Origin: a virus
Taxonomy: Duplodnaviria > Heunggongvirae > Uroviricota > Caudoviricetes
Strand: one strand, 5' to 3'
IMG/VR virus record: IMGVR_UViG_2879731240_000002
DNA: 26,245 nt
Shown: positions 23,227 to 26,245 of the stretch, piece by piece
Layout: every line of letters begins with the position of its first letter
Position numbering within the stretch: the first letter of the stretch is position 1
Notes under the pieces: generated by a model
Seen by the model: the letters and a program-made list of their open reading frames with translations, nothing else
Database searches by the model: none
Told to the model about the DNA's origin: nothing
Program-made: the position numbers and the translations under genes

Positions 23227-23332
23227 TATACTAACGAATCCCACACTCTGGCAAATTACCACCACCTCTACAGGAGGTGGTTCTATATAGACTTTTATCA
23301 ACTTCATGACGAAAAACACCTATTTGAAGTGG

Positions 23333-23800
23333 TCAACAAAAACTGGCCACCGAGTTAGAGTTTTTCCAGTATCGATTTTCCGATTCGTTTGGGGGTAACC
23401 CACCGTTATATTCGTGCGGTCTTAGTGCGCTGTAATATCCAACGATATAGTCCGTTATGGCGTGAGCTGCCTCGCTGAAGCTTACGTAACCCACCACCGG
23501 CATCCATTCGTTCTTCAGACTCCTGAAGAAGCGTTCCATTGGGCTGTTATCCCAGCAGTTTCCGCGCCGGCTCATTCTGGTATCGCCACAATAACTGCCG
23601 GAACTGCCTGCTCGTATAATGACTGCCCTGCTCGCTGTGGAACATCACCCCGCCGGGCTTACCACGGGTTTCCCATGCCATTTCCAGCGCTTTCATGGTG
23701 AGCCTGCTGTCCGGCGAGAACGACATGGCCCAGCCCACTGGTTTTCTTGCGAACAGGTCGAGAACAACGGCGAGGTACGCCCAGCGCTTACCCGTCCAGA
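23333..23800 (-). pseudogene. IS3-family (IS911-like) orfB, 3' part (downstream exon); the 5' part is at 26071-26245
   Basis: DDE-region peptides [44 protein letters not shown]. An additional frameshift between the 23547-23738 and 23333-23575 ORFs suggests the gene is degraded even if the intron is spliced. Confidence 0.7.
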
Positions 23801-26070
23801 GTAGAGTAAGAGGCAGGGCGTAGTCGGACTATTTCCCTGCCTCTCCTCCCCGAACCGGACGTGCACCTTTCAGCGCATCCGGCTCTCCATTTAAATGCTG
23901 GCGAACGCCATTGCCACTTCTGTAAAGCGCGATGTATACGTGTTTCTGGTCTCCGTCCTCAGATAGGGATTACCTTCGGGTAGCCGCCAGCGGAACAGCT
24001 TCTTGCCTTGCCCCACCAACCGGTACAGTATTTCGCCGCTGAGCTTGCCGTGATTGGTTTTACCAAATAAAACCCACGTTTTGCTCTGACCCGGTTTCGG
24101 TGATTTACACCACCACCTCATCAGGGAAGCGATACCTGTACGGTATTTGCGGGCCAGCCAGTGAGCCAGCTTCCAGAACACGACACGGTCGATATAACTG
24201 AAGACTTTGGCCTTAAAATCAACGAACTGATAGAACATGGCCCAGCCTTTCAGTTTTCGGTTGAGTTGTTCAGCCATATCGACTTTGCTTTCACTGTAGT
24301 TGCCTGATAACAGTGCTGTCAGCGATGCGGCGAAGTTTCTGGCTTTCTCCTGCGGGATCGTTGAGACCACTCGCATCTCGCCATAACGACTGCGTTTGCG
24401 AATGATCCTGTGCCCCAGAAAGATAAAGCCGTCATTAACATGGGTGATTTTAGTCTTATCCATGTTCAGCCTGAGTTTCAGACTGCCTTCGAGCACACCC
24501 CGACACTCCTCCCTGATGGCTTCCGCCTGTGCTTTGGTGCCTTTGACGATGAGGACAAAATCATCGGCATAGCGGCAGTACGCCACCGCGGGTTTCCACT
24601 GCCAGTTTTCTCTGACCGCCGTACTTCGGCCCCGTTGGATACTGTTATTCCAGTACCACCGATCTTTTCTGGCTTTCCCGCTCAGGTAGCGCTCATGCAG
24701 GTATTGATCGAACTCATTCAGCATGATGTTCGATAATAGCGGCGATATAACACCGCCCTGTGGCACACCTTCACTGGCCGCCCGAAAGAGACCGACATCG
24801 ATATGTCCCGCCTTGATGGTTTTCCACAGCAGAGTCATGAAACGTGCGTCACTGATCCTGCGGCGTACAGCCTTCATCAGCAGTCGATGATGTACGGTGT
24901 CGAAGTAACTGGACAGGTCGCCTTCAATCACCCAGCGTCCCCGGGTTTCACCACAGTCTGTGAGCTGTAATTTCACCGTGCGGATCGCGTGGTGGACACT
25001 GCGCTCAGGCCGGAAGCCATATGAGAGCGTATGAAAATCACTCTCCCATATCGGCTCCATCGCCATCAGCATGGCCCGCTGAACAATACGATCCCGCAAC
25101 GCGGGGATACCCAGTGGTCGCAGTTTGCCGTTGCTTTTAGGGATGTAAACCCGTCTGGCGGGCAAGGGCTGGTAGTGGCCTGAGAGTAATTCATCCCTGA
25201 GGATTTGCAGCTCAACAGCCAGTCTGGCCTGTAGCATTGTTTTGTTCACGCCATCAACGCCGGGGGTATGGGCCCCCTTTGATGAAAGCGTGATCCGCGC
25301 CGCTTCAGCCAGCCATTCTGGTTGTGTTATCAGACGCAGCAGCCGTTGAATCCGTAGGGACGGATCGGTGGCTGCCCATGTGGCAAGCTTGCGTTGCATT
25401 TCGCTGATTATCAAAGGTCTTCACCTCGTTAGGTCAGTTAATTCACGTCGCAAACACATTCAAACTGCTTCCCTTCGCCATGTAATGGGCTTTCCCCATC
25501 GCGGACTACTACGGAAGCTCCGCCAGCCAGCGCGTCATCGGAGCCATGCCCCCTTAACATCCGTCGCTGACCTTCCCCGGTTTACCTGCCTGGACTCAGG
25601 CATACTGAGGAGGCTGCCCGTCGCACTCTTTATCCTTGCTTGCCGCAAGTTGGCAGAAGTCAGCAACGCAAGTGTGATAGACGCTGCTGCCCCGGTGTTT
25701 CGCATACATGTCAAAACACCTTCGACCGGCAGTGCTTACGTATCACTGCCAGTTCCTCCTGCACGGCCTGTCAGATCACGTAGGCCGTGGTGACGTTTTC
25801 AACCCACAGAGGCGGATTAACGGGTTCATGTTCTTCAGCCTTTCAGTACTTAACCTTGAGGATCATCTCGGCTTAGTGATCTCGCCTCAATCCCCGTTGT
25901 CAGCGGGTTACATCACCCTGCGGGCATGCCGCAGGTCACTGCCGCTCAGGTTCTCCACCGTCACACCCGGTGGGATTGTTGGGTTTCTCATCGTGAGTTA
26001 CCGGTTCAATATTCCAGACAGACTCGCGGTTCATTTAAGCATCCATGCCCGCCCTGAACTCCGGGCACAC
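23801..26070 (-). mobile_element. Bacterial group II intron (about 2.27 kb) inserted in the IS911-like orfB
   Basis: 5' end GTGTG (consensus GUGYG); domain V hairpin GAGCCGGATGCGCTGAAAGGTGCACGTCCGGTTC near the 3' end; domain VI with a bulged A; 3' end ...CTAC; intron-encoded protein ORF in domain IV; exon junction reconstitutes the orfB frame. Confidence 0.8.
23891..25414 (-). CDS. Group II intron-encoded reverse transcriptase/maturase (507 aa)
   Basis: RT motifs including YADD (CRYADDFVLIV), followed by a maturase (X) domain; no obvious C-terminal HNH endonuclease domain. Confidence 0.85.
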   Translation of the reverse strand: MIISEMQRKLATWAATDPSLRIQRLLRLITQPEWLAEAARITLSSKGAHTPGVDGVNKTMLQARLAVELQILRDELLSGHYQPLPARRVYIPKSNGKLRPLGIPALRDRIVQRAMLMAMEPIWESDFHTLSYGFRPERSVHHAIRTVKLQLTDCGETRGRWVIEGDLSSYFDTVHHRLLMKAVRRRISDARFMTLLWKTIKAGHIDVGLFRAASEGVPQGGVISPLLSNIMLNEFDQYLHERYLSGKARKDRWYWNNSIQRGRSTAVRENWQWKPAVAYCRYADDFVLIVKGTKAQAEAIREECRGVLEGSLKLRLNMDKTKITHVNDGFIFLGHRIIRKRSRYGEMRVVSTIPQEKARNFAASLTALLSGNYSESKVDMAEQLNRKLKGWAMFYQFVDFKAKVFSYIDRVVFWKLAHWLARKYRTGIASLMRWWCKSPKPGQSKTWVLFGKTNHGKLSGEILYRLVGQGKKLFRWRLPEGNPYLRTETRNTYTSRFTEVAMAFASI

Positions 26071-26245
26071 TATAGGTCACATCACCGCACCACACCTGAT
26101 TTGGCTCGGTCACGGCGAACTGCCTTTCAAGGTAGTTAGGGATAGCAACATGTTCATGACCACCACGTTTATACCGGTGAGTCGGCTGCTGACAGCTGAC
26201 CAGCCCCAGCTCTTTCATGAGCCTGCCAGCAAGCCAGCGTCCCAT

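Follow-up and report, generated by a model that had tools for sequence, protein, structure and literature searches.

An E.c.I4 group II intron in a defective IS911 copy beside tRNA-Asn, and its relatives in other transposase genes

By aligning a 26,245-nucleotide stretch of DNA (the window; IMG/VR record IMGVR_UViG_2879731240_000002) with complete E. coli genomes, we identified a complete group II intron, E.c.I4 of bacterial class A, within the transposase gene (orfB) of an IS911 copy that is itself defective. We consider it very likely that this is a canonical, apparently intact E.c.I4 at its normal homing site in IS911 orfB and that it would move by the RNA-guided route set out below. The arrangement of this intron within IS911 is common, already published and not new, and the window itself matters little. 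There is no difference from E.c.I4 in the intron; the unusual part is the host IS911, with an 11-bp deletion, an Asp-to-Glu change and the remnant of an HPI-type integrase at tRNA-Asn.

The intron, its protein and its host element

The main features are listed below with the evidence on which each was placed.

26071..26245, minus strand: 5′ exon, IS911 orfB, ending ...QVWCGDVTY plus the first base of the Ile codon (translation, Pfam rve, RefSeq)
23801..26070, minus strand: group II intron E.c.I4, complete, 2270 nt (alignment with copies in other host ISs)
23891..25414, minus strand: intron protein ORF (ltrA), reverse transcriptase (RT) and maturase (Pfam, TIGR04416)
23326..23800, minus strand: 3′ exon, remaining IS911 orfB up to the terminal inverted repeat (alignment to uninterrupted IS911)
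23631, minus strand: SNP changing HSDQGS to HSEQGS, second catalytic Asp of the DDE triad (alignment to IS911 reference)
between 23575..23576, minus strand: 11-bp deletion (TCAGACAGAGT absent) that frameshifts orfB (alignment to uninterrupted reference L004; same gap against the copy in strain 55989; the ORF breaks here)

The intron boundaries were set by alignment to the copies in strains IAI39, 55989 and EC958, each of which lies in a different host IS, and identity among the aligned copies begins at GTGTG and ends at ...CTCTAC. The intron starts with GTGTGCCCGG at 26070 (GUGUG, 26070-26066) and finishes with ...CTTACTCTAC (...CUCUAC), its last base being 23801; GUGUG and ...CUAC agree with the group II end rule of 5′ GUGYG and 3′ AY. 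It matches the EC958 copy at every nucleotide, and over 2270 nt it differs by three SNPs from E.c.I4-10 of IAI39 and by two from E.c.I4-3a of 55989. The IAI39 copy (NC_011750:489783-492052) is entered as E.c.I4-10 in Table S3 of Leclercq and Cordaux (PMC3522654), who describe homing of E.c.I4 into IS629, IS911, ISEc16 and ISEc31. Under the rule of the intron database, sequences more than 95% identical receive one name, and by this comparison the window element is the same element as E.c.I4/S.f.I1: it has 2270 nt where 2270-2271 nt are listed, the same En-less protein of 502/507 aa, and the same insertion in orfB of IS3-family elements including IS911. E.c.I4 and S.f.I1 have been placed in class A, a class without the En domain (PMC3552965), and the class assignment of the window intron follows from its identity to E.c.I4 together with that placement. 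The earlier note had recognised, from the letters alone, an intron with a GTGTG 5′ end, a GAAA-looped domain V, a domain VI with a bulged A and an RT/maturase ORF; boundaries, Rfam and Pfam bear out all of these, and when intron and protein were classified they matched catalogued E.c.I4, with full identity to the ltrA-bearing EC958 copy.

The protein is 507 aa long from TTG 25414, or 502 aa from ATG 25399, and its translation contains the YADD motif. It matches Pfam RVT_1 (1.5e-34) and GIIM (1.3e-10), and scores 340.9 bits against TIGR04416 (cutoff 300). The RefSeq ltrA product of the EC958 copy, whose DNA is 100% identical to the window, is WP_001189111.1; the IAI39 copy has the same accession, which is the commonest allele, and the window ORF is intact and identical to it. 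The nearest solved relative is LtrA (5g2x, E=2e-52), from Ll.LtrB of Lactococcus lactis (class ML/IIA). Its best-scoring aligned stretch covers query residues 23-240 in the RT region, and across all solved relatives, LtrA included, such stretches fall within residues 23-244 of that region. LtrA has 599 aa, with DNA-binding and HNH endonuclease domains by which it cuts the second strand, whereas the E.c.I4 protein ends, at residue 507, about 80 residues past the maturase region. No HNH domain was found in it at E≤0.1, in keeping with the earlier suggestion that the endonuclease is missing.

At the splice junction the 5′ exon reads ...GTG ACC TAT A and the 3′ exon TC TGG ACG GGT AAG. When the exons were joined in silico across 26071/23800 the reading frame was kept (...DVTY|IW..., predicted ligated junction ...GTGACCTATATCTGGACG...), and the joined exons match Pfam rve (2.4e-25) and align as a single piece to uninterrupted IS911 copies, labelled in RefSeq ‘IS3-like element IS911 family transposase’. 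Thus, the in-frame split of orfB claimed in the earlier note holds. In RefSeq records, the pair of ‘partial IS3 family transposase’ pseudogenes on either side of ltrA represents a single IS911 interrupted by E.c.I4.

The terminal inverted repeat of IS911, TGAAGTGGTCAACAAAAACTGGCC... read on the plus strand, starts at 23326. The window stops within orfB, the left part of IS911 lying outside it. Compared with uninterrupted IS911 (L004), the 3′ exon has one SNP apart from the 11-bp deletion. A complete element has both inverted repeats, orfA, the −1 frameshift site and an intact DDE triad; here, orfB is frameshifted and the triad reads HSEQGS. These changes also confirm the suspicion that the IS is degrading through a separate downstream frameshift. 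By its sequence, then, the host is IS911, yet this copy is defective, and dead irrespective of the intron: with 11 bp deleted and Asp replaced by Glu, orfB could not give a working transposase even after splicing.

This IS911 lies directly downstream of a decayed HPI-type integrase beside tRNA-Asn, and the flank similarity of HPI-bearing E. coli genomes stops at 23325. The arrangement of integrase remnant with IS911 and intron was absent from every complete E. coli genome in our collection. The host chromosome is probably that of Shigella or enteroinvasive E. coli (EIEC); an ipaH prophage lies upstream and suggests the same.

Ribozyme structure and target recognition

Comparative folding of the intron with its relatives placed the following domains.

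25576..26065, minus strand: domain I, intron nt 6-495, closing stem 6-10 with 491-495 (RNAalifold consensus, 37 relatives)
25522..25575, minus strand: domain II, intron nt 496-549 (13 pairs, 10 compensatory, 97-99% paired; helices 22 and 23)
25467..25518, minus strand: domain III, intron nt 553-604 (16 pairs, 7 compensatory, >99% paired; helices 24-26)
23852..23885, minus strand: domain V with AGC triad, 2-nt bulge and GAAA loop (Rfam RF00029 and D5-only models, exact coordinates)
23804..23848, minus strand: domain VI with bulged branch-point A at 23807 (17 pairs, 9 compensatory)

An Rfam E-value search with models of domains I-IV gave no match, and when the first 656 nt were folded alone by minimum free energy, no domain structure could be read from the result; the comparative fold was used instead. 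The consensus for domains I-III (RNAalifold, 37 relatives), which leaves out intron nt 59-118, has 145 pairs, and 93 show compensatory changes. Paired cells make up 96.6%, compared with 34-43% after sliding the partners, and the observed pairing values were reached by none of 500 shuffles. Domains I, II and III are laid out around a central wheel, and the ORF begins at intron nt 657, in domain IV. The Ll.LtrB domain III/IV region (GUAGUAGUC...UUACAUGGC.AAGGG) looks similar to that of E.c.I4.

At the 3′ end, Rfam RF00029 matches 23801-23887(-) with 64.9 bits (gathering score 40). Domain V reads GAGCCGGAUGCGCU-GAAA-GGUGCACGUCCGGUUC, its 3′ side running GGUG CA CGUCCGGUUC after the GAAA, and its 14 pairs are 99.8% paired across 36 distinct relatives, with 2 compensatory. 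Domains V and VI together are 99.4% paired with 11 compensatory pairs. The A at 23807, 7 nt from the intron 3′ end, is unpaired in 37/37 sequences (between columns 89 and 91). The window copy forms 145/145 of the domain I-III consensus pairs and all 31 of the others. The earlier note had named the absence of domains I-IV or an inactive domain V as evidence against its reading; both were looked for and not found, and covariation supports domains I-III, V and VI.

The sites by which the intron would recognise its target were located from covariation between introns and their exons, and are as follows.

25792..25796, minus strand: EBS2, 5′-ACGUC-3′, intron nt 275-279 (best antiparallel diagonal against exon positions; covariation)
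26079..26083, minus strand: IBS2, 5′-GAUGU-3′, exon −13 to −9, Asp codon and start of Val codon (5/5 pairs with EBS2)
25703..25709, minus strand: delta A (nt 362) and EBS1, 5′-UGUAUG-3′ (nt 363-368) (covariation with exons)
26071..26076, minus strand: IBS1, 5′-CCUAUA-3′, exon −6 to −1 (5/6 pairs with EBS1)

Pairing along the EBS2 diagonal is 95/77/97/97/97%. Among 47 intron/exon combinations, intron nt 276 and exon −10 form U-A in 29 and C-G in 7, and G occurs at exon −10 only where the intron has C (Fisher p=1.2e-4). In the RNAalifold structure a small local helix (intron nt 267-273 with 278-282) takes up part of EBS2, which may therefore not be fully single-stranded. Delta and EBS1 sit in the loop of the hairpin GGUGUUU[UGACAUGUAUGCG]AAACACC and pair with exon +1 and then −1 to −6 at 87/65/97/95/95/38/85%, delta A pairing with the +1 U in 40/47 combinations; in both E.c.I4 and Ll.LtrB a delta-delta′ pairing lies beside EBS1. 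Compensating changes in EBS1 accompany changed exons: one relative (L008) has exon AAUGGU with loop ACCAUU, another (L041) has CCUGGC with GCCACG, and L047 and L084 behave likewise. The IS911 target pairs at 11/12 positions, equal to any other target, with a C:U mismatch at −5.

A different loop, AUACGUAAG (nt 328-336), had been picked as EBS1 since its CGUAAG perfectly complements the end of the IS629 exon. It showed no covariation with exons and was rejected, because L008 keeps ACGUAAG despite a different exon and it is the loop of the next hairpin that covaries. Loops nt 328-336 and nt 289-292 are candidates for a kissing interaction of three conserved pairs with weak covariation.

Mobility of the intron and alternative histories

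In the mechanism that we favour, the IS911 transcript would carry the intron along, and the RT and maturase encoded in domain IV would aid folding of the ribozyme and its splicing through the bulged A of domain VI, freeing a lariat-protein particle. Splicing of the window copy is itself predicted from its sequence. New sites would be found by RNA-DNA pairing (EBS2 with −13 to −9, EBS1 with −6 to −1 and delta with +1), and the lariat would reverse-splice into the sense strand between ...TATA and TC.... The predicted pairing falls mostly at codon positions 1 and 2 of D-(I/V/F)-T-Y-(I/V/L) around the first catalytic Asp, while third codon positions would meet a wobble-capable G or stay unpaired, so that several elements of the IS3 family (IS629, IS911 and others) would be open to a single intron. 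Homing endonucleases and introns at catalytic-motif codons follow the same logic, reading codon positions 1 and 2 such that many variants are targets; E.c.I4 differs from homing endonucleases in using RNA-DNA pairing (EBS/IBS) rather than a protein-DNA interface, and in that its host genes are themselves selfish.

Since the protein lacks an endonuclease, cDNA synthesis would presumably be primed by the nascent strand at the replication fork, which is a reasonable extrapolation from other endonuclease-less introns. The experimental model for fork-primed retrohoming is RmInt1 of Sinorhizobium meliloti. It too encodes an RT/maturase without an endonuclease and homes into the transposase gene of an IS. 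RmInt1 differs in belonging to class D/IIB3, in having another RNA structure and in using an IS of a different family (ISRm2011-2), and what has been demonstrated there we infer for E.c.I4. Both RmInt1 and endonuclease-deficient Ll.LtrB prime from nascent strands at the fork, and either strand can serve. The RmInt1 protein is reported to bind the beta clamp (PMC6698660).

Near-identical introns occupy the same codon in at least five different exon contexts. The full-length intron is present in 1874/5426 complete E. coli genomes, at up to 20 places per genome, and uninterrupted IS911 sites in 2724 genomes. Copies at least 99% identical occur in 2722 records, which argues for very recent spread. 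The exact IS911-intron junction is found in 1323/5426 complete E. coli genomes, about a quarter of them.

That the same 5′ junction recurs so widely is one reason to consider that the composite of IS911 and E.c.I4 arrived at this locus whole, either transposed through the action of another IS911 in trans or brought in by gene conversion or homologous recombination with a further intron-bearing IS. In 55989 the intron joins a 5′ exon of IS629 type to a 3′ exon of IS911 type (alignment; Table S2 of PMC3522654), which indicates that recombination across intron copies happens, and IAI39 copies are located at GC-skew switches and gene-order breakpoints. We regard such an arrival as a serious possibility, if somewhat short of an even chance. 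Against it, the transposase in the window is dead, such that another IS911 would be needed in trans, and pairing at the IS911 site is no worse than at other targets. Moreover, it would leave the identity of the element unaffected and would still need an original retrohoming into IS911.

A second alternative concerns only the priming step, which might be independent of the fork and start at random nicks, through host nucleases or de novo. Both orientations relative to the fork are indeed seen: the window copy is co-directional with it, and of four IAI39 copies examined among 15, two are head-on (L093 and L094) and two ambiguous, with elements at inversion breakpoints. This mixture lends no positive support to any one mode of fork priming. 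Present orientation is weak evidence on priming, as inversions and IS movement scramble it, and the precedent of the two introns above, in which both strands are usable, favours nascent-strand priming. We think fork-independent retrohoming unlikely. Inversions appear to use the 3.5-kb repeats of IS plus intron as their substrates.

Less likely still is an inert relic that no longer splices or moves in its host: many genomes do have a single copy beside many free sites (in S. flexneri Sf301, 1 copy against 42 sites; Leclercq and Cordaux, PMC3522654), but here the ORF is unbroken and matches the commonest allele exactly, every consensus pair (145 + 31) forms, the AGC triad, GAAA loop, branch A, EBS1/2 and both ends are canonical, and the near-identity across records speaks for very recent spread. 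We retain an apparently intact E.c.I4 at its homing site in IS911 orfB, with retrohoming that is presumably fork-primed, as the preferred reading; the earlier idea of an IS as landing pad agrees with the published behaviour of E.c.I4 (PMC3522654).

Relatives at transposase catalytic codons

In the literature searched class A is small, with ‘3 almost identical members’ in 2013 and a ‘paucity of class A’, two introns, in 2020. A scan of genome contigs gave about 550 relatives, and about 60 relatives in many bacteria occupy the same DDE-motif codons of transposase genes, their target-pairing bases covarying with the exons. The host genes of the relatives are of IS3, HTH_32+rve, IS6/IS240 and weak-rve types; L008, with its altered EBS1, sits in a DUF2913 gene. 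Targeting of DDE codons by these relatives is possibly a new by-product of the analysis. Whether class A in the broad sense is larger and more widespread than the searchable literature says, and is a dedicated parasite of transposases at the W-x-x-D-(I/V/F)-T-Y-(I/V/L) codons around the first catalytic Asp with occasional EBS1 retargeting, we judge to be an evenly balanced question. On that reading the whole lineage would pair at codon positions 1 and 2, with a wobble-capable G opposite third positions or no pairing there.

The window itself shows nested selfish DNA in textbook form, a tRNA-linked island remnant holding an IS911 that in turn holds a group II intron. If confirmed, the wider pattern would represent a natural RNA-guided retroelement tuned to the coding sequence of a conserved catalytic motif, and would give natural EBS/IBS variants for targetron design.

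The E.c.I4 intron and its IS911 host

The boundaries of the intron were set by alignment with three further copies, each in a different insertion sequence. Identity is complete within the element and collapses exactly at both ends, the only identity past the boundaries being two exon bases (TC) common to all hosts. The intron starts with GUGUGCCCGG and ends with CUUACUCUAC.

26070 to 23801, minus strand: group II intron, 2270 nt
25414-23891, minus strand: intron ORF, 507 aa from TTG (502 aa from RefSeq's ATG)
23801-23887, minus strand: domains V and VI, Rfam group II intron model, 64.9 bits against a gathering score of 40
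23631: single-base change, HSDQGS to HSEQGS, at the second aspartate of the DDE triad
Between 23576 and 23575: 11-bp deletion (TCAGACAGAGT) in orfB, a frameshift relative to uninterrupted IS911

The 5' exon ends in ...GGT GAT GTG ACC TAT A and the 3' exon starts with TC TGG ACG GGT AAG, placing the intron within an Ile codon (A/TC). When joined in silico the exons read in frame across the junction and align in a single piece to uninterrupted RefSeq copies of 'IS3-like element IS911 family transposase', and the central observation of the earlier note, that excision restores the orfB frame, is therefore correct. Only two differences separate both exons from uninterrupted IS911, the 11-bp deletion, which is the separate downstream frameshift seen in the earlier note, and base 23631. 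Because of these two lesions splicing could not give back an active transposase in this IS911 copy.

Domain V (GAGCCGGAUGCGCU-GAAA-GGUGCACGUCCGGUUC) has the AGC triad, a two-base bulge and a GAAA loop, and domain VI has an unpaired A at 23807, seven bases from the 3' end. The Pfam domains RVT_1 and GIIM are both present in the intron protein, which also scores above the threshold of the NCBIfam group II RT/maturase equivalog (340.9 bits, cutoff 300); LtrA is its closest solved relative, the best-scoring aligned stretch being the RT region. A domain search found no HNH domain in it at E<=0.1. The GAAA loop of domain V, the bulged A of domain VI, the RT/maturase ORF and the apparent lack of an HNH endonuclease had all been described in the earlier note, and all hold.

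No base separates the intron from the element that carries ltrA in E. coli ST131 EC958 (100% identity), and the IAI39 and 55989 copies depart from it at two or three positions. Table S3 of Leclercq & Cordaux 2012 (PMC3522654) gives the IAI39 copy (NC_011750:489783-492052) the name 'E.c.I4-10', and E.c.I4 and S.f.I1 have been put in class A, among the classes without an endonuclease domain (Toro & Martinez-Abarca 2013, PMC3552965). The match to these copies identifies the window intron as the known E.c.I4 at a known site, ordinary for E. coli and Shigella. The observation in the earlier note is confirmed and its interpretation supported overall, the finding itself being already known. Of 5426 complete E. 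coli genomes, 1874 carry the intron at full length, at up to 20 places per genome, and plasmids of Klebsiella, Salmonella, Shigella and Enterobacter have copies too. The exact 5' junction between IS911 and the intron is found in 1323 genomes and uninterrupted IS911-type sites in 2724.

Ribozyme structure and target recognition

A profile built on the intron protein, run against a single genome from each species, yielded 80 loci (proteins 67-100% identical), with full-length introns of 2242-2288 nt at 64, and 37 non-redundant representatives were aligned for a comparative fold. In domains V-VI 31 pairs were obtained, 11 with compensatory changes, and 99.4% of cells are paired (38-50% with the 3' partners slid; observed values reached by 0 of 500 shuffles). 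The 5' 656 nt, of which nt 59-118 vary too much to be modelled, give 145 pairs, 93 with compensatory changes and 96.6% of cells paired (34-43% with partners slid), and the window copy forms all 145. The Rfam D1-D4 models did not match the intron. The earlier note named an absence of domains I-IV, or an inactive domain V, as what would refute its reading; checked comparatively, domains I-III, V and VI are supported by covariation.

Features of the 5' part, in intron nt (minus strand):
6-495: domain I, closing stem 6-10 with 491-495
275-279 (ACGUC): EBS2, pairing with exon -9 to -13 (95/77/97/97/97%)
328-336 (window 25735-25743): hairpin loop AUACGUAAG, EBS1-like, R-U-A-N-G core conserved
362-368 (A + UGUAUG): delta and EBS1, pairing with exon +1 and -1 to -6
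496-549: domain II
553-604: domain III
644-657 (window 25414-25427): conserved hairpin GAGGU-GAAG-ACCUU in domain IV
657: start of the ORF, held in domain IV

The domain IV hairpin encloses the Shine-Dalgarno sequence and TTG start of the ORF, and its DNA is kept down to relatives whose proteins are 67% identical, which suggests a domain IVa-like site of protein binding and translational control.

EBS2, EBS1 and delta, the intron bases that pair with the exons, were located by scoring each intron alignment column for base pairing against each exon position over 47 distinct intron/exon combinations. Two antiparallel diagonals stand out, and both covary with the exons. Intron nt 276 and exon -10 form U-A in 29 combinations, C-G in 7 and C-A in 7, and every G at -10 goes with an intron C (Fisher p=1.2e-4). 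At locus L041 an atypical exon, CCUGGC, is met by the EBS1 loop GCCACG, and EBS1 loop changes likewise compensate atypical exons at loci L047 and L084. The loop at nt 328-336, in the preceding hairpin, was the first EBS1 candidate, but lack of covariation with the exons ruled it out; its bases may instead contact UAC at nt 289-292, loop to loop, over 3-4 bp, for which covariation is weak.

The IS911 site in the window pairs at 5/5 positions with EBS2, 5/6 with EBS1 (C:U at -5) and 1/1 with delta, against 4/5, 5/6 and 1/1 for the IS629 site; on these counts IS911 is predicted to be a target as good as any.

A relative with 79% protein identity (L008; GCA_037199905.1, JBBCVB010000017.1:47784-52307) lies in a DUF2913 gene, not a transposase, adjoining a Rep_3 plasmid replication gene. 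Its exon AAUGGU is matched by a changed EBS1 loop, ACCAUU, with EBS2 still matching GAUAU, which makes this a natural case of retargeting.

Mobility and origin of this copy

The anatomy of the intron supports the standard pathway, in which splicing would be assisted by the intron protein and followed by reverse splicing into DNA sites chosen by EBS2, EBS1 and delta. Since the protein lacks an endonuclease, the expected route would be cDNA synthesis primed from nascent strands at replication forks. Such priming is established for RmInt1 and endonuclease-deficient Ll.LtrB, whereas for E.c.I4 it is expected by likeness. GC skew of the plus strand is negative along all 26 kb, and the minus-strand intron is therefore co-directional with the fork. 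Of four IAI39 copies examined, out of 15, two are head-on to the fork and two ambiguous, the elements lying at skew switches and gene-order breakpoints; orientations seen today are scrambled by inversions and possibly also by movement of the IS-intron composite.

It remains a live explanation that an already invaded IS911 arrived at the locus, or that recombination across intron copies placed this copy. Such recombination does occur: the strain 55989 copy (L003, NC_011748:3364500-3369800) is flanked by a 5' exon of IS629 type and a 3' exon of IS911 type, and its host IS is thus a chimera from recombination across intron copies, as likewise recorded in Table S2 of PMC3522654.

In IAI39, IS-E.c.I4 composites lie at rearrangement junctions (NC_011750:467000-515000, L092; 897000-945000, L094). 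GC skew at the former is -0.029 left of the element, where the rrnH operon lies on the minus strand, and +0.015 right of it; at the latter, genes that map near 2.2 Mb in K-12 adjoin a prophage at 0.9 Mb. Large inversions appear to use the 3.5-kb IS-intron repeats as substrates.

Elsewhere the window has the following features.
44-247, minus strand: IS009, Rfam 129.1 bits, above gathering score
1004-1183, minus strand: CssrB Shigella sRNA, Rfam 230.2 bits, above gathering score
15118-15427, minus strand: four-tRNA array (Gly-tcc, Thr-tgt, Lys-ttt, Met-cat) with 1-3 base spacers, in the prophage region
18328-18503, minus strand: sok antitoxin/CssrC, Rfam 118.9 bits, above gathering score
21727-21802: tRNA-Asn, adjoining the integrase pseudogene
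21964-23226, plus strand: HPI/P4-type tyrosine integrase pseudogene, with lesions of the start codon (ATG to ATA, 21964-21966) and an in-frame stop (TGG to TGA, 22276-22278)

IS911 ends at 23326, 100 bp past the integrase stop, and the flank match in other E. coli genomes stops at 23325. About 1-20600, upstream of tRNA-Ser/mtfA, is prophage, and none of the complete E. coli genomes in the collection covers at least 80% of it. The T3SS effector gene ipaH is present in the sequence that matches it best (99.6% identity over 74% of the query), making Shigella or enteroinvasive E. coli the probable source.

Transposase motif codons as possible targets of the lineage

Among the relatives, drawn from the protein-profile scan of one genome per species, 38 of 46 distinct 5' exon ends read GAY-N6-TAY-N, and nearly all spliced-exon translations give ...W..D(I/V/F)TY(I/V/L)... 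followed by ...YLAVV.DL.SR..VGW.... Pfam assigns the hosts to the IS3-type rve, HTH_32+rve, IS6-family DDE_Tnp_IS240 and weak rve types; one host, the DUF2913 gene with the retargeted EBS1, is not a transposase. The paired bases are first and second codon positions of the W..D(I/V/F)TY(I/V/L) motif; in the Asp and Tyr codons the third position is opposite a G, which pairs with C or U, and the remaining third positions are unpaired or mismatched. In the literature searched class A still consists of two or three near-identical introns. We see an even chance that targeting of a transposase motif, shared by these relatives, is both correct and new.
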